The notes under the pieces were generated by a model. That model did no database searches. It saw only the letters and a program-made list of their open reading frames with translations, and was not told the DNA's origin. The translations under genes and the position numbers were made by a program. From a virus, in the IMG/VR virus record IMGVR_UViG_3300003323_000724, positions 1-64,000 of that record: a stretch of 64,000 nt of DNA; one strand, 5' to 3'. This document shows positions 4,881 through 31,967 of the stretch, in pieces. The first letter of the stretch is position 1; each line of letters starts with the position of its first letter.

Positions 4881-5261
4881 ATGCCGGACCAAGTGTGGAT
4901 TCAATACGGATCGTTCGGAATCGTTTTCCTTATCCTAGTTGGTGGGGGAATCTGGTTCATTCGGTCTGGCTTTCCACAGATGCTTGTTGCGATGCACACG
5001 CTGGCCGATCGGGTAATGCTGACCGTTGAGAAGATGGACGACGGGTGCCGAGCGGAGCGGCGAGAACAACTCGCCGCGTTCCGCACCGAGAGCGAAAAGA
5101 ACCGGGAGATGATGGAGCGGATTTCCAAGTCGGACATGGAGGCGCGGCACAAGCAGGGCGAAGTTTACCAGCGGCAAATCATCGAAATGTTTGAGTATTT
5201 CACGAAACAATCCGGGGGCTTTCATCCGCCCGGAGTAAAACCGAAACCGGGGAACTCCTGA
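4881..5261 (+). CDS. Single-TM membrane protein with coiled coil (holin/spanin-like candidate)
   Basis: N-terminal TM segment GSFGIVFLILVGGGIWFI followed by a charged helical region. Confidence 0.55.
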   Translation: MPDQVWIQYGSFGIVFLILVGGGIWFIRSGFPQMLVAMHTLADRVMLTVEKMDDGCRAERREQLAAFRTESEKNREMMERISKSDMEARHKQGEVYQRQIIEMFEYFTKQSGGFHPPGVKPKPGNS

Positions 5262-27245: not shown

Positions 27246-27864
27246 AAAGGACCAACGATGGAAGTTATCGAAATTGATCCGGAAGTAGACGGCTGGAATG
27301 GTTCTTGGAACAAGCTGTTTTCAAAAATCAAGAAACAGCTTCCTTTGGAAACGAGAACCGAAAAATACGCCGCGATCGTGACAACCATTATGACTTTCGA
27401 TTCGGGTAACCTGAGAACCAAGATTGGCGCAGATGAATTTCTTTACGTGACGTGGGCACCTGCGAAGCAAAACCAGTTTCCCAAAGCGGTTGTTTGGTAT
27501 GCACTGAAGCACGAAGGAGACGTGAAATGAACCAGAAGCCGAAGAAGAAAAAGTGGAGTCCACCCAAGCCGGAAATCGAACCGCTGCCCGAAGTGGTGCC
27601 GACGTGTCGCCAGTTCTTCACCCAAGCGTGCCCTCACTGCTCCGGGACGGGCACCACGGCCCACACCCCGGGCGGATGGTGGATCGATTGGCACTATCAG
27701 GACTGTCACGAGCAGGAAGGGCCGCTGACCAAAACCCAAGCAATCAAGACGATTTGTCAGCACAAGGACGGATCGTGCCGTCCGACCCTCATTGGTCCGG
27801 ACGGCACGGTTTACGAGATCCCGGAACTGGAAAAGAGAAAATCGAAGAAATCACGCGGGGCGAT

Positions 27865-27892
27865 TTGACAGGTTCGATTCGTGTGGCATAGT
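27865..27892 (+). promoter_or_regulatory. Phage promoter motif copy (TTGACA-N16-CATAGT)
   Basis: Conserved motif. Confidence 0.8.
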
Positions 27893-27932
27893 TGAGCACC
27901 GAAGACGACAAACACGAACCGGAGACAAAGAA

Positions 27933-28157
27933 ATGCAAAATGACGAGATGCGGGAATTGCTGTCGAAGGGACCAACCAAAGACTCTCGATGGATTCACAA
28001 GAAGGGCGGAATTTATCGAGTAGTCACGACCGCCCTTAACGAATCAACTCTTGATGTGGTTGTGGTTTACACCAACGAACAGTATGGGGTCACTTGGATT
28101 AGACCACTTGCGGAATTTATGGATGGGCGATTCATACGACTGGACGGAGGGGTTTAA
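27933..28157 (+). CDS. DUF1653-like protein
   Basis: W.HKKGG.Y.V...A..E.T....VVY......TWIRPL.EF..GRF. Confidence 0.75.
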   Translation: MQNDEMRELLSKGPTKDSRWIHKKGGIYRVVTTALNESTLDVVVVYTNEQYGVTWIRPLAEFMDGRFIRLDGGV

Positions 28158-28506
28158 CTACTCGTCCCACCCTGCTTCACGGACCCGGCGGCGTTCTTCT
28201 TCGGTGAACGGTGGGAACCTGCGGGGCTGATCTTGGGTAAAGGAGTTCCCATTTGGGAACTCCCGGTCTACGAAAAACAAGCGGGCCTGTGCGATGCACT
28301 GCTCCATTCGGGACACCAGAACTTCGAGATCCTCATAACTGTTCACTTTGTCGCCCTCGTACTGGTTTTGGGCGGCACATGAGCCGCAAGTATCGTTCCC
28401 AAAGTGTGTAAGGAAAAACCGAAACAAAATAACGGATTGTCTCAGCACGGCTAAGGTTCATGTGGTAAGTAACTGTACCCGAAGAAAAGATTGAAGGTAG
28501 GAAGAA

Positions 28507-29757
28507 ATGAAGAAGGCAAAAGAGAAAGGATCTACGGTTGTTAGAGCTGTGACTTTGCCCGTATCGGTTCCACTGGGAACAGATCCCAGCGGTAAGTCCT
28601 GGACTTGGGAATCGTTCAACGCAGCGATGACGAATGCGTTCCGGCTGTCGACGGATCTGGCCAACTGGTGCGTTCGTCGGTTGTTCATGATTGATGATTC
28701 GGGCAGCACCAAGACACCGGAAGCGATCAAGAAGTGGTACGGGTACAAGGACGCAAACGAGAATTTTCCCCGGATCGCGGGTTGGGCCGGGGCGATGGCG
28801 AGCATGAACATCGTGACTCGAAACGTCCAGCGGAAGTACATTCAGGATCGGTTTTCGGTAATTATCAAGCACGATTCGAGTTTGCTTACGTACCGGTTCC
28901 CGCAGCCGTTTCCGGTTCACAACGCGAGTTGGAAAACGGGCTACGCAGACGGGGATTTCCCAACAGTTAGGATGGCGATTCCGGGAGTGGGTCAGGTGGA
29001 ACTGAGACTGAAACGAAGGGCCGATTTTGGGCGACAGTTGGCAATGTTTCGCCAACTCCACGACGGGACAGCCAAGAAGGGTGAAGCGGCACTCTACCGT
29101 GACAAAAAGGGTGTTCTCTTGCTGAAGATGGTGGGGCACTTTCCGAAGAAGGAGCGGACGGAAGCGGCTAACGTGTGTTTCCTGCACACGGACCCGAACG
29201 CGATGCTAGTGGCTGAGATCAACGGCCGGTCAGTAACCGTGACTAACGGGGACCACCTAAAGCGAGCACACAAGGTTATCCGGGAGATGAACGACAGGCA
29301 CCGGGTGTTCTTGCAACGGATCGGGGAGGACAAGAAACGGGAAGTTCGGATGGATCGGGACCAGCGACAGAACGTGAACAAGAAGGTCGAAGATCGGTGT
29401 AACAAGCAGAGGAACCGAATCGACACGGCCGTGAAACAGATTGCGGCTCAGGTGGCTCGGTTCTTGGAACGACAGAAGGTTGGTCTTGTTGCCTACGATG
29501 ATTCGATCAAGACTTTCCTTCCTGACGGGTTCACTTGGCACGCTTTGAAAACACGGATCACCCAATTGTTTGTTGGTGAGATGGGTGGGGAGTGGATTGA
29601 CGGTAAATTCACACACTTGAAGGACGAAACGGAGAAACAGGAATGGCTGATAAGAGCACGGGCGGTGTACACAACGATTCCGAAAGTCGTGGCACACAAG
29701 TCCCGACCCCGGAAGAAGTCGCATCCGGCGGTGTCGATACCGCCAAAGACCATGTGA
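28507..29757 (+). CDS. Cas12f/TnpB-like type V effector, predicted nuclease-dead
   Basis: Colinear with Cas12f1 segments: WED strand, REC helix, SLLTYR.PQP ~ SIPSYK..IP, RIDTAVKQIAAQVA ~ FRDTTNHRYSRYIV, FTWHALKTRI ~ WTYYDLQQKI. RuvC-I GIDLG reads FLHTD, RuvC-II QMED reads AYDD, and there is no CxxC ribbon or RuvC-III. Adjacent to a CRISPR array. Confidence 0.75.
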   Translation: MKKAKEKGSTVVRAVTLPVSVPLGTDPSGKSWTWESFNAAMTNAFRLSTDLANWCVRRLFMIDDSGSTKTPEAIKKWYGYKDANENFPRIAGWAGAMASMNIVTRNVQRKYIQDRFSVIIKHDSSLLTYRFPQPFPVHNASWKTGYADGDFPTVRMAIPGVGQVELRLKRRADFGRQLAMFRQLHDGTAKKGEAALYRDKKGVLLLKMVGHFPKKERTEAANVCFLHTDPNAMLVAEINGRSVTVTNGDHLKRAHKVIREMNDRHRVFLQRIGEDKKREVRMDRDQRQNVNKKVEDRCNKQRNRIDTAVKQIAAQVARFLERQKVGLVAYDDSIKTFLPDGFTWHALKTRITQLFVGEMGGEWIDGKFTHLKDETEKQEWLIRARAVYTTIPKVVAHKSRPRKKSHPAVSIPPKTM

Positions 29758-29880
29758 AAATGGCTTCGGCCTTGATGAACGGTCTGTTTAATGGCGGGTT
29801 GAAATCTCGAACGTCTCGCGATGCCGTTCGGATCGGGCACTACGGTTTGCGGGCGATCCAAACGGACACTACCAGCGAGT
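29727..29880 (+). ncRNA. Putative tracrRNA-like structured RNA
   Basis: Several hairpins plus two segments complementary to the CRISPR repeat (29837-29843; 29867-29878); boundaries uncertain. Confidence 0.4.
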
Positions 29881-30111
29881 GATTAGGTGATAAACTGATG
29901 GTTTGTTTGAAAATCGATGTAAGTTGCGGGTTGTGTTTAGTTTGTGCTGATCTTTGACAAATCAACCGCTCGCAACAACATAACTTAGTGATTACATTGT
30001 CTTTGCGCTCCTGCCGAGCGCGGACGCAACGGGCACCTGTCTCACGCAGTCAGGTCCGCTCGCGTAACGTGGGATAAAACTGGTCCGGGAGATGACTTAA
30101 GTGTCCCCGCC
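29881..30111 (+). promoter_or_regulatory. CRISPR leader
   Basis: Non-coding and partly AT-rich; repeated CCGCTCGC and a CGAGCG...CGCTCG inverted repeat immediately before repeat 1. Confidence 0.55.
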
Positions 30112-30367
30112 CCGGAACTACTACACCGATCGTTGGAGTGGTGCAGGGTGGCCCGGGTCGAGTACGACGGAAGTACTGGGGCCCGGAACTACTACACCGA
30201 TCGTTGGAGTGGTGCAGGGGCCTGACGGCGTTCGGCCGCGACTTCGCCGGCCTCCCGGAACTACTACACCGATCGTTGGAGTGGTGCAGGTACATGCGCG
30301 CCTCCGGCGCGTTCACGTGCTTGTAGAGATTCCGGAACTACTACACCGATCGTTGGAGTGGTGCAGG
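30112..30367 (+). CRISPR. CRISPR mini-array: 4 x 36-bp repeat CCGGAACTACTACACCGATCGTTGGAGTGGTGCAGG, 3 spacers (35, 36, 41 nt)
   Basis: Identical repeats at 30112, 30183, 30255 and 30332 with unique spacers. Orientation is inferred from the leader position and from the variant preceding base at the last repeat (C,C,C,T). Confidence 0.95.
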
Positions 30368-30387
30368 GAGGTAGTTAAGGGGAAAAA

Positions 30388-30996
30388 ATGACATTGACCG
30401 AAAAAGAAGTCCGAGGAGTGTTTCGAGCGTTGTGGGTGAAGGAATCCGAAGAGTGGTCTGTGGACGAACTGACTCGACGTGTTAACCGAGTGGGTGAAGT
30501 TCATAGTTGGGTAAAACCAAAACAGAATTACTTGTTCCGGTCGGATGAGCTGGAAACTCTGTTGAAGTTGGTCAATTGCGACGGACGGGGAGAAATTGAA
30601 ATAACCCCGACACCAAGTCGGGATAAGCCAGAGTCTCGATTGAAGTGGAAGGAGCGGTTGAACGCGATCCGCCGGGGAACGGGTGCCAAGAACAAACCCC
30701 GTAAGGGGTCTGCTAAGGATTTGGCCCACCGGCTGCTTTTGAAGGCCACGGAGAAATCTCCGCTGACCATTGAAAAACTAGCGAAGATCATCCACGCCAA
30801 TTTCCAGAACCGAGAATACTATGCGGTTCTGAAGTCGATGAAGCGGGTTATGATCGAACTGAAGGTGGAGTATGGGGTTTACGTTTCCTCTCGACGGCTA
30901 GATAAGTCCGAAAGAAACGGGAAACGTAATTTGTTTGGATACTGGATCGAAGGGGACGGGAAAATCAAACCGAGTGAGGAGAAGACAGGTGAGTAA
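30388..30996 (+). CDS. Basic hypothetical protein, possible winged-helix C-terminus
   Basis: Starts 20 nt after the last repeat; LTIEKLAKII helix pattern. Confidence 0.6.
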   Translation: MTLTEKEVRGVFRALWVKESEEWSVDELTRRVNRVGEVHSWVKPKQNYLFRSDELETLLKLVNCDGRGEIEITPTPSRDKPESRLKWKERLNAIRRGTGAKNKPRKGSAKDLAHRLLLKATEKSPLTIEKLAKIIHANFQNREYYAVLKSMKRVMIELKVEYGVYVSSRRLDKSERNGKRNLFGYWIEGDGKIKPSEEKTGE

Positions 30997-31477
30997 GTCC
31001 GAATTGACGCTGGAACAGCAAGCAACGAATTACCAGACAACGCGGCACATTCGATTGGTTCAGCGGCTTCTACATCTTTGCATCGGGGATTTGATGCGGA
31101 GGGCGGACGAGCACGATCAGTCGAAACTGGAAAGCCCCGAAGTGGAAATGTTTACTGAGTTCACAGCGAAGCTGGCAACAAGCACTTACGGATCGTCGGA
31201 ATACGAAGGGTTTCGCAAAGCGATGGGGCCAGCATTGGCACACCACTATGCCAACAATCCGCATCATCCCGAGCATCATAAGAATGGAGTAGCAGATATG
31301 AATCTGCTTGATATTCTCGAAATGTTATGTGATTGGAAGGCGAGCAGCACGCGGCATAATGATGGTAATATCAAAAAATCGATTGAAATTAATGCTAACA
31401 GATTCAATCTGTCCCCACAGTTGGTGCAGATTTTAGAGAACACTGCTCCACTGTTTGATGGACAGAAGGAGATTTGA
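30989..31477 (+). CDS. HD-like hydrolase (DUF5662-type)
   Basis: T.RHI..V, HDQSKL, HHY.NN.HHPEH, D.LEMLCDW.A. Confidence 0.75.
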   Translation: MSKSELTLEQQATNYQTTRHIRLVQRLLHLCIGDLMRRADEHDQSKLESPEVEMFTEFTAKLATSTYGSSEYEGFRKAMGPALAHHYANNPHHPEHHKNGVADMNLLDILEMLCDWKASSTRHNDGNIKKSIEINANRFNLSPQLVQILENTAPLFDGQKEI

Positions 31478-31770
31478 TTCACAAGTTTTCGTTCGAGTCC
31501 AAGTTCCATCCGGGGGATTTTGTGTATTTGAAGGTCGAGAAGGTGTTTAGCGACAATTACAACAAGAAGCTGAACAAGACGTTAAAAGTGGATATGGAGT
31601 ATTGTCCTCCCAAGGTATTTCAGGTTCTTGGTGTGTTTGGAATGTTTACGGAACGAGGACTAAAGGAAATAACATACCGACTCAATTCAGCGGGAATCGA
31701 AGGGTCAAAGACGGAATACCTACACGCCGAAGAAGAGGAATTGGAACTGTTTAAGGATGGCGAGATTTGA
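31474..31770 (+). CDS. Hypothetical protein
   Basis: Operon packing; KFHPGDFVY SH3-like start. Confidence 0.55.
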   Translation: MIHKFSFESKFHPGDFVYLKVEKVFSDNYNKKLNKTLKVDMEYCPPKVFQVLGVFGMFTERGLKEITYRLNSAGIEGSKTEYLHAEEEELELFKDGEI

Positions 31771-31876: not shown

Positions 31877-31967
31877 GCCGTGTTAGTTTAGTGGAAGAAC
31901 ATTCCCCGCAAGGGAAAGGCGGAATCTCGACTGACGAGTCGGGTAGGTTCGATACCTCCACACGGCT
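31877..31967 (+). tRNA. Atypical tRNA-like element (Cys-like: GCA in loop, U discriminator, long variable arm)
   Basis: Acceptor GCCGTGT/ACACGGC, TA, D-arm GTTT-AGTGGAA-GAAC, stem TTCCC-CGCAA-GGGAA, T-arm GG(T)AGG-TTCGATA-CCTCC. Confidence 0.6.

Follow-up and report, generated by a model that had tools for sequence, protein, structure and literature searches.

A phage-borne, C-terminally truncated Cas12f-like protein with its own guide-RNA scaffold and CRISPR array: a candidate non-cutting DNA binder aimed at host genes

Several relatives of the type V CRISPR effectors and of TnpB in which RuvC is impaired silence their targets by binding, namely Cas12m, Cas12c, TldR and dCas12f (PMC11656645, PMC10705468, PMC13472631). 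Here we describe a locus from the IMG/VR virus record IMGVR_UViG_3300003323_000724, which is 103,939 bp long (completeness estimate 77%) and whose first 64 kb are the stretch analysed, called the window below. The locus encodes a 416-residue Cas12f-like effector that lacks the last part of RuvC, and carries behind it, on the same strand, a structured scaffold RNA and a CRISPR mini-array. We consider it probable, at roughly 0.6, that the phage carries here a non-cutting, RNA-guided DNA binder of Cas12f descent and aims it at host chromosomal genes.

The described systems closest to it are those of Cas12f. Like AsCas12f (8dzj), OsCas12f (9nzq) and Un1Cas12f (7c7l), to which its similarity in sequence is weak but significant, the effector is predicted to adopt a miniature bilobed WED/REC/RuvC fold of comparable size, and it is likewise accompanied by an array and by a structured scaffold RNA that appears to contact the repeat at two sites, the repeats being 36-37 nt long and ending in UGCAAG or UGCAGG. 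Unlike these nucleases, the effector has neither the TNB domain with its zinc ribbon nor the RuvC-III aspartate, and its RuvC-II residue is Asp, not Glu, which leaves the triad incomplete. Moreover, the locus has no cas1, cas2 or cas4 genes, its scaffold shares the strand of the array and abuts repeat 1 on the upstream side, and the system is carried by a phage and has spacers that match host genes.

In the dead Cas12f associated with sigma-E (dCas12f; 9n9c, PMC13472631), part of RuvC is likewise missing through natural shortening of the C terminus, and this protein too is presumed to bind under RNA guidance without cutting. However, the present locus has no rpoE or helix-turn-helix partner, most loci of its family have arrays in place of single chimeric guides, and the two proteins share 14% sequence identity, 9n9c giving no match in the profile search of PDB sequences. 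An array-associated dCas12f cluster has been mentioned, on bioinformatic grounds only, for Chitinophagaceae, with a covarying RNA upstream of the arrays, a target in an efflux promoter and suspected repression (Hoffmann et al., Nature 2026, PMC13472631), and Altae-Tran et al. (PNAS 2023, PMC10691335) reported a branch of Cas12f in which the loss of RuvC-III preceded that of the arrays. A first-pass annotation of our stretch had set the locus apart from sigma-associated dCas12f as a form with a single guide and no array; in view of this cluster and of these RuvC-III-less branches, it would be too strong to hold that array-associated dCas12f is unknown. The cluster of Hoffmann et al. is bacterial and directed at an efflux promoter, whereas the family studied here is mostly viral and the present array matches host open reading frames (ORFs).

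TldR proteins (PMC10705468) resemble the effector in their TnpB fold, their inactivated or truncated RuvC and their presumed RNA-guided repression, and two of our loci (L036 and L056) have a lone scaffold-repeat-guide as they do. TldRs are, however, derived from TnpB, chromosomal, and equipped with one omega-like guide on a specific promoter (e.g., that of fliC or of an ABC transporter), whereas the present family is closest to Cas12f, is phage-borne and usually has variable multi-spacer arrays, and the spacers of the window have no self-target in the phage genome. Cas12m (type V-M), which occurs on plasmids, and Cas12c are likewise CRISPR-associated proteins whose binding blocks transcription without cutting, but they are of about 600 amino acids or more, with a complete RuvC and TNB and with CRISPR RNA (crRNA) alone as the guide, in contrast to 416 amino acids and a scaffold RNA here. 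The CRISPR systems of huge phages, Cas-phi (Cas12j) and Cas-lambda (Al-Shayeb et al. 2020, PMC7162821), are phage-borne, compact and of type V, have no adaptation genes and, as here, direct some spacers at host genes or rival phages; their effectors, however, are active nucleases of 700-800 amino acids that use crRNA only, whereas the protein described here is of about 400 amino acids, truncated in RuvC and apparently scaffold-dependent. Our literature search, whose scope did not extend to the virus-CRISPR survey of Al-Shayeb et al. 2022, returned no account of a predominantly viral family of this kind, of its scaffold architecture or of spacers against the host chromosome.

The module comprises the following elements, given in the coordinates of the window:

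28507-29757, + strand: effector gene, an ORF of 416 amino acids.
30000-30111, + strand, 5' boundary approximate: guide-RNA scaffold of about 112 nt, of the kind of a trans-activating CRISPR RNA (tracrRNA) or omega RNA, recognised by a conserved block and covariation.
30011-30014, + strand: loop of scaffold helix 1 (CUGC), predicted to form a pseudoknot with the repeat end GCAG (30143-30146 in repeat 1).
30084-30089, + strand: anti-repeat UCCGGG, predicted to pair with the repeat 5' end CCCGGA (30111-30116).
30112-30147, 30183-30218, 30255-30290 and 30332-30367, + strand: CRISPR mini-array of four identical 36-nt repeats.

The first-pass annotation was thus right about the 416-residue ORF followed by four identical repeats with three unique spacers. 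It had also placed the module among phage replication genes, and a DnaB-like helicase gene (PHROG 19) upstream and a sliding-clamp-like gene (PHROG 947) downstream do flank it; these neighbours and the virus record itself establish the phage setting. The absence of cas1, cas2 and the TnpA transposase gene, noted before for the window, extends to the whole 103,939-bp record, in which neither Cas1, Cas2 nor a Y1 transposase was found.

The AlphaFold2 model of the effector, computed from a 56-sequence family alignment (A1), had a pLDDT (predicted local distance difference test) of 87 and a pTM (predicted template modelling score) of 0.74. Compared with solved structures by Foldseek, it reached an E value of 1.6e-15 to 8j12, and the structural comparison with VIA gave the following scores:

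AsCas12f (8dzj): VIA Z 21.0, 344 of 416 residues aligned.
Sigma-E-associated dead dCas12f (9n9c): VIA Z 20.4, 326 residues aligned.
Al3Cas12f: Z 18.8.
Un1Cas12f (7c7l): Z 16.5.
TnpB: Z 15.2.

The larger Cas12 types scored Z 9-13, with Cas12m2 (8hhl) at Z 10.7. Among the PADLOC profiles, Cas12f (E 4e-7) and Cas12u3 (E 1.5e-6) matched, spanning residues about 74-328 only, and the family profile matched OsCas12f (9nzq) among PDB sequences at E 2e-4. In this alignment the segment FLPDGF-W-HALK... stands opposite KFLRHWTYYDLQSKI...GIQVVKINPRHTSQ of OsCas12f, which form the helix and strand that directly follow RuvC-II, and two alignments given in the annotation (the SSLLTYR..P.PF block, and F-W-HALK with WTYYDLQSKI) are reproduced in it. 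Searches with the effector in Pfam, NCBIfam, PHROGs and, as a single sequence, the PDB gave nothing significant. The modelled structure, compared as the annotation had proposed with Cas12f and TnpB structures, confirms the Cas12f-like character of the protein, with a predicted fold of WED/REC, RuvC-I, RuvC-II and a short helical basic tail.

The family is large: a word-indexed search returned 106 matches, and an exhaustive search (E up to 1e-3) returned 643 representative clusters, whose members are nearly all of about 350-500 amino acids. The atlas cluster to which the effector belongs is 78% viral and has no common Pfam family, while its structural neighbours carry PF07282. Members are present in 3 of 267 Gemmatales genomes. 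A search of viral contigs for related loci with the effector sequence alone gave no match.

Residues were mapped on the secondary-structure order of the model together with the OsCas12f alignment made with a hidden Markov model (HMM). In RNase-H order, the model has a beta strand at 222-229 ending in T228-D229-P230, two further strands, a helical hairpin (249-322), a beta strand at 325-331 ending in Y-D331-D332, a helix (344-358) and a beta strand (362-365), after which only two short helices and the basic tail follow. It is after the strand matching 362-365 that Cas12f and TnpB would have their zinc-ribbon/TNB insertion and the helix with the third catalytic Asp; the effector ends about 70 residues past RuvC-II. 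The same truncation was seen throughout the family. Among 242 homologues aligned to the family HMM, the 237 with the F-x-W helix were used for the truncation counts, and the number of residues past this helix had a median of 43 and a 95th percentile of 106 (n=237). Two CxxC motifs occurred in 0/237 homologues, the Pfam TNB domain (PF07282) was not detected in the effector, and there was no credible instance of a RuvC-III (DxNAA-like) motif, only 2 chance strings in the 237. Hence the missing CxxC ribbon and RuvC-III and the basic tail in their place, as described in the annotation, proved to be no peculiarity of one protein, the truncation being shared by all 237 homologues.

The replacement of the RuvC-II Glu by Asp331 also stands, as the position reads D331/D332. 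In the RuvC that the annotation had called degenerate, the RuvC-I residue Asp229 is not lost. According to the family HMM alignment, 75% of members have D229, 80% have D331 and 86% have D332, compared with 96-98% for the presumed nucleic-acid-binding positions R115, K277, R281 and R322. The counts over the 237 homologues thus indicate that RuvC-III and TNB are missing family-wide and that the remaining acidic positions are under relaxed constraint. From this architecture, as seen in the model, we infer that the effector is nuclease-dead. Each clade has its own kind of C-terminal tail; 75/237 members have a basic one with a conserved G-S-H-P-A-V-S motif (SHPAVS at 405-410 in the window protein), and distant members have short acidic ones. 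These tails may serve to bind a partner or to regulate.

Alignments of the gap (A2-A4) show a block of about 112-120 nt that adjoins repeat 1 on its upstream side and stays conserved between loci whose effectors share as little as 47% identity, and RNAalifold folds it into a multi-helix structure in which 29/41 pairs show compensatory changes. With the covariance model R1, built on scaffold plus repeat, about 35 loci gave a full-length match on the gene's strand and close behind the gene, including distant ones (E 1e-10 to 1e-2) and loci where no array had been found before. In an alignment of 41 distinct sequences, 87.2% of cells were paired, compared with 57.5% in shuffles and 36-45% in slid controls, and double changes occurred in 40/41 pairs; this alignment is fitted to the covariance model and so favours the modelled helices, a bias from which the slid controls and the pseudoknot described below are free. 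The helix between the anti-repeat and the repeat 5' end is 99.1% paired, with 6/6 pairs covarying. The pseudoknot between the loop of helix 1 and the repeat end, whose pairs lay outside the model used for the alignment, has four covarying pairs (one of them, e.g., CG 18 and UA 12), and the loop/repeat-end combinations include CCUGC/GCAGG, CCGCA/UGCGG, AUCAC/GUGAU and CCGUA/UACGG. Judged by this covariation, the scaffold is a Cas12f/omega-like guide component predicted to clamp both repeat ends. Cas12f single-guide RNAs and omega RNAs contain two repeat:anti-repeat duplexes and a pseudoknot, an arrangement of which the present scaffold is reminiscent.

The comparison of the repeat with the gap by RNAduplex was not above background, as the contacts are too short (6 and 4-5 bp) and were revealed later by covariation. 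An Rfam search of 27500-31500 (E up to 1) gave no match. The gap from the effector stop to repeat 1 is 354 nt in the window, and the true stop-to-repeat gap in distant relatives is about 110-150 nt. The annotation had described it as a non-coding structured gap of about 350 nt; the structured RNA is borne out, but the non-coding part of the claim is not, for a conserved ORF of 40 amino acids lies inside the 354 nt. Two tandem scaffold-array units stand behind one effector gene in locus L001 (L001:5090-5236 and L001:6162-6305). In the first of them, the anti-repeat UCCAG fits only the adjacent first repeat (CUGGA) and not the CCGGA of the other repeats, which suggests pairing in cis for the first guide.

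The repeat reads CCGGAACTAC...GGTGCAGG, with an internal hairpin and a conserved 3' UGCAGG. With its identical direct 36-nt repeats and unique spacers of 35, 36 and 41 nt, the array corresponds to the definition of a CRISPR array (repeats of 23-47 nt), and the repeat has no other copy in the 103,939-bp record. Folding of the repeat alone did not decide the strand; the orientation is settled by the scaffold, the strand of the gene and the conserved 3' end of the repeat.

Arrays adjoin the homologues as a rule. All 15 of the IMG/VR loci with homologues adjoin an array, with 36-37-nt repeats at a spacing of about 72-75 nt, and in 14/15 it lies downstream on the strand of the gene. By a strict exact-match criterion, an array was also found in 22/29 testable metagenome loci, i.e., those with at least 400 nt downstream. 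The loci examined in context were a set that did not take in the closest homologues (62-74% identity). The homologues therefore generally keep their arrays, a point that the annotation had put forward for checking, and with 15/15 viral and 22/29 metagenome loci the link between effector and array is not due to chance. The repeats vary in sequence between loci, and what they have in common is an internal hairpin with compensatory changes and a 3' end UGCRGG or UGCAAG; most loci have 2 to about 19 repeats per array. None of the neighbouring genes is conserved across 25 non-redundant loci, so the module appears to consist of the effector and the RNA genes only, with no obvious partner nuclease alongside.

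Two loci (L036:1209-1355 and L056:4045-4192) have the scaffold and a single repeat without a second one, and are natural single-guide forms like the guides of TldR and dCas12f-sigma-E. One spacer is common to two phage arrays (L061:4262-4300 and L064:1641-1676), and spacers are duplicated within the arrays of L007 (5366, 5515) and L014 (5688, 5759). In IMG/VR, the shared L061/L064 spacer and the duplicated L007 spacer matched only their own arrays.

The three spacers of the window were compared with Gemmatales genomes, with the following results:

30148-30182, + strand: spacer 1, 35 nt; 33/35 (E 4.5e-9) in a large serine recombinase gene of the Gemmatales genome G057.
30219-30254, + strand: spacer 2, 36 nt, encoding GLTAFGRDFAGL; 30/36 in a Limnoglobus metagenome-assembled genome (Gemmataceae), all six differences synonymous.
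30291-30331, + strand: spacer 3, 41 nt, antisense to nrdB; 40/41 in the genomes G057, G058 and G060.

The protospacer of spacer 1 lies near the 3' end of the recombinase gene (Resolvase, Recombinase and Zn_ribbon_recom domains), among unannotated ORFs, and the target is mobile-element-like in that it adjoins a DUF2924 gene. The nrdB gene matched by spacer 3 (PF00268, E 1.8e-77), which encodes the small subunit of ribonucleotide reductase, belongs to an nrdA-nrdB operon beside a housekeeping peptidase gene, in genomes of 9-10 Mb. The match of spacer 2 was found by a codon-degenerate pattern, and a search of the close host relatives G056-G060 with up to 3 mismatches gave no match for it. Its target (L070:2710-6360, - strand) encodes a 1217-residue Schlafen-AlbA_2 / nSTAND-NTPase5 / TPR protein with a match to PADLOC PDC-S50, and by its domain architecture it is a candidate Avs-like defence gene, orthologous to the gene from which the spacer was taken.

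The GC content is 70% in the spacers and 54% in the phage, and in one frame every spacer looks like coding DNA, with a high GC content at third codon positions. In the genome of the phage itself the spacers had no match of more than 12 nt, and homologues of the genes that they target are absent from it. IMG/VR held no exact match to the first 22 nt of any of the three spacers. As two independent spacers match the same genome among 267, a Gemmataceae-like host and guides directed at host chromosomal DNA are indicated. Across the family loci examined there are 118 unique spacers. The first spacer of L048 (4219-4253) resembles the reverse complement of the 3' half of a tRNA (T arm and acceptor). 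It agrees in 29/29 nt with a tRNA 3' fragment about 370 nt beyond the array (5005-5033) and differs within the first 5 nt proximal to the protospacer-adjacent motif (PAM); the fragment is att-like, since ARAGORN finds no intact tRNA there. This spacer may point to the targeting of tRNA or attB sites.

Taken together, these features suggest the following mechanism. Transcription of the + strand of the locus would yield the scaffold of about 112 nt and then the repeat-spacer units. Two contacts would hold the repeat, one between its 5' end and the UCCGGG of the scaffold, the other between its last nucleotides and the helix 1 loop, giving a Cas12f/omega-like guide with the spacer 3' of the repeat. 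The 416-residue protein, in which the WED/REC lobe and the initial two thirds of RuvC are kept but the TNB/zinc ribbon and the RuvC-III helix are missing, would load this guide, form an R-loop at matching DNA and remain bound. The guides of the window phage would be aimed, in a Gemmataceae-like host, at nrdB, at the gene of an Avs-like STAND NTPase and at the recombinase of a mobile element. The likely result would be a block of transcription (or replication), similar to CRISPR interference (CRISPRi), of host, defence and rival-element genes during infection, which would leave the host chromosome unbroken. The idea of the first-pass annotation that a phage could in this way repress host genes without destroying the chromosome is directly supported by the matches of spacers 1 and 3 to Gemmatales chromosomal genes, and with an orthologue of the spacer 2 target that diverges only synonymously.

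Several observations weigh against this reading. The acidic RuvC positions D229 and D331/D332 persist in 75-86% of members, so that residual metal-dependent chemistry, such as processing of the crRNA precursor or nicking, is possible. All three protospacers lie inside ORFs, on both strands and none at promoters, which looks like random acquisition and not like tuned regulation. Targets were found for the window array only: the arrays of L025 and L001 had no match in Gemmatales at E up to 1e-6, with 2 candidates per genome scored, and their hosts may be other organisms. The target of spacer 2 was seen only through an orthologue, and no PAM was derived, position -1 being G in the two near-exact cases only. 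The silencing of nrdB by a phage that has no ribonucleotide reductase of its own has no obvious rationale, and the phage has no Cas1-Cas2 to supply new spacers.

The same binding could serve a different purpose, namely competition with rival prophages, integrative elements or co-infecting phages with a serine recombinase, a defence island or an auxiliary nrdB gene, whose replication or transcription would be blocked. The blocking of rival elements has been proposed for plasmid-borne Cas12m and type IV systems, and interference-defective CRISPR systems borne by mobile genetic elements have been described in inter-element competition (PMC11656645). The target of spacer 1, a large serine recombinase gene beside DUF2924, is of the mobile-element kind and fits this purpose, and STAND defence genes are often found on mobile islands. 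Ribonucleotide reductase genes are common auxiliary genes of phages, which also counts in its favour. Spacer 3, however, matches in 40/41 positions an nrdB gene that stands in a canonical nrdA-nrdB operon by housekeeping genes, in three large chromosomes, and the lack of exact IMG/VR matches to the first 22 nt of the spacers likewise speaks against viral rivals as the targets. We regard inter-element competition as a possible but unlikely main purpose.

Somewhat more doubtful is a role as RNA-guided recruiter, in which the C-terminal tail would bring a factor of host or phage, such as a nuclease, helicase, RNA polymerase, sigma factor, recombinase or parts of the replisome, to the bound site, with degradation or activation of that site, or its use in integration or replication, as the outcome. 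Dead type V effectors with such partners are known, namely dCas12f with sigma-E (PMC13472631) and Cas12k with TniQ/TnsC (PMC11656645). The conservation of the tails within clades (the SHP motif in 75/237, acidic tails in distant members), the position of the gene between those of the DnaB-like helicase and the sliding clamp, and the L048 spacer that resembles a tRNA 3' half near an att-like tRNA fragment are consistent with recruitment. On the other hand, no neighbour gene is kept across the 25 loci, the window neighbours tested, namely the DUF1653, DUF5662, helicase and clamp genes and ORFs that matched no family, included no sigma factor, transposase or nuclease, and the tails differ between clades, so that no single partner is implied. 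Competition and recruitment are both variants of the same binding mechanism.

It is very unlikely that the protein still cuts, whether through a rearranged site (D229, D331, D332), by dimerisation or on RNA or single-stranded DNA, and acts as an interference nuclease against host or rivals. The retention of the three Asp residues in most members would agree with this, as would the active RuvC rearrangements of TnpB clades, one of them without a zinc finger (PMC10691335). Nevertheless, 237/237 homologues lack the TNB domain and the whole of the RuvC-III helix, the catalytic positions are less conserved than residues of the nucleic-acid-binding type, and the structure that, after active Cas12f, comes closest to the model is that of a dCas12f which is dead by nature and shortened at its C terminus. 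Cleavage of nrdAB would also break a host chromosome that the phage needs, though lytic phages tolerate that. Finally, viral cas-gene homologues have been reported as anti-CRISPRs (bioRxiv 10.1101/2023.06.24.545427), but that the effector is such a decoy, a dead Cas homologue that soaks up the guides of a host type V system or competes for its targets with the array as a by-product, is hardly credible given that the protein co-evolves with its own scaffold and repeats, that family and repeat are nearly absent from the host order (3/267 genomes), and that the spacers are diverse and match host genes.

The remaining features of the surroundings are as follows:

27792-28157, + strand: DUF1653 gene (E 6e-8).
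29760-29882, + strand: small ORF of 40 amino acids (MASALMNGLF...), with codon-like conservation in the clade alignment A2.
30368-30390: junction of the terminal repeat with the ribosome-binding site and ATG (30388) of the next ORF (202 amino acids, no family match).
30935-31477, + strand: DUF5662 gene (E 1.2e-37).
31877-31967, + strand: tRNA-Cys (GCA), 91 nt and thus unusually long, between the CRISPR module and the sliding-clamp gene.

Homologues of the small ORF, of 39-87 amino acids, occur only in the subclade of the window (L020:1669-1803, L022:4215-4334, L025:1696-1830 and L026:1222-1485) and share the motif ...ARDAVRIGHYGLRA... or ...ARGAGLVFRGVSGQLRA.... The 40-residue product has no Pfam match, no Cys pairs and no conserved Asp, and the last two features rule out a split-off zinc ribbon or RuvC-III; the module may have in it an accessory or a regulatory peptide. 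The DUF5662 and DUF1653 genes, which flank the module here, are not kept beside the effector in other loci. As the terminal repeat directly abuts the ribosome-binding site and start codon of the next ORF, transcription of the array may continue into the downstream genes, and it is the start of that ORF that a "guide" past this repeat would match. A scan of 28300-30500 for sigma-70 promoters and terminators found nothing, the scan not covering planctomycete promoters.

A predicted non-cutting, RNA-guided DNA binder of about 400 amino acids that has a guide some 150 nt long and natural variants by the hundred would offer a chassis for compact CRISPR interference and activation and for base or epigenome editors, and the scaffold structure, defined by covariation, makes the system directly testable. 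The family represents a stage between active Cas12f and the array-less dCas12f and TldR, in which RuvC-III has been lost, arrays are kept and a few members are of the single-guide form. If the proposed silencing is real, viruses as well as bacteria and plasmids have adapted dead type V effectors for silencing, here aimed at the host chromosome, where the matched genes are a core gene of dNTP synthesis, a candidate Avs-like defence gene and a mobile-element recombinase gene, and this would be a route of counter-defence and host takeover distinct from protein anti-defence factors. A broader proposal, to which we give a little less than even odds, is that many phages, represented here by one of planctomycetes, carry a programmable natural CRISPRi, made up of a Cas12f derivative of about 400 amino acids, a scaffold RNA and an array that takes up host spacers via adaptation in trans, and use it to silence host genes during infection, those of antiphage defence and core metabolism included. 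In that case, viruses would widely employ an adaptive, RNA-guided strategy of host takeover and anti-defence, and the effector would rank among the smallest natural DNA-binding CRISPR effectors.

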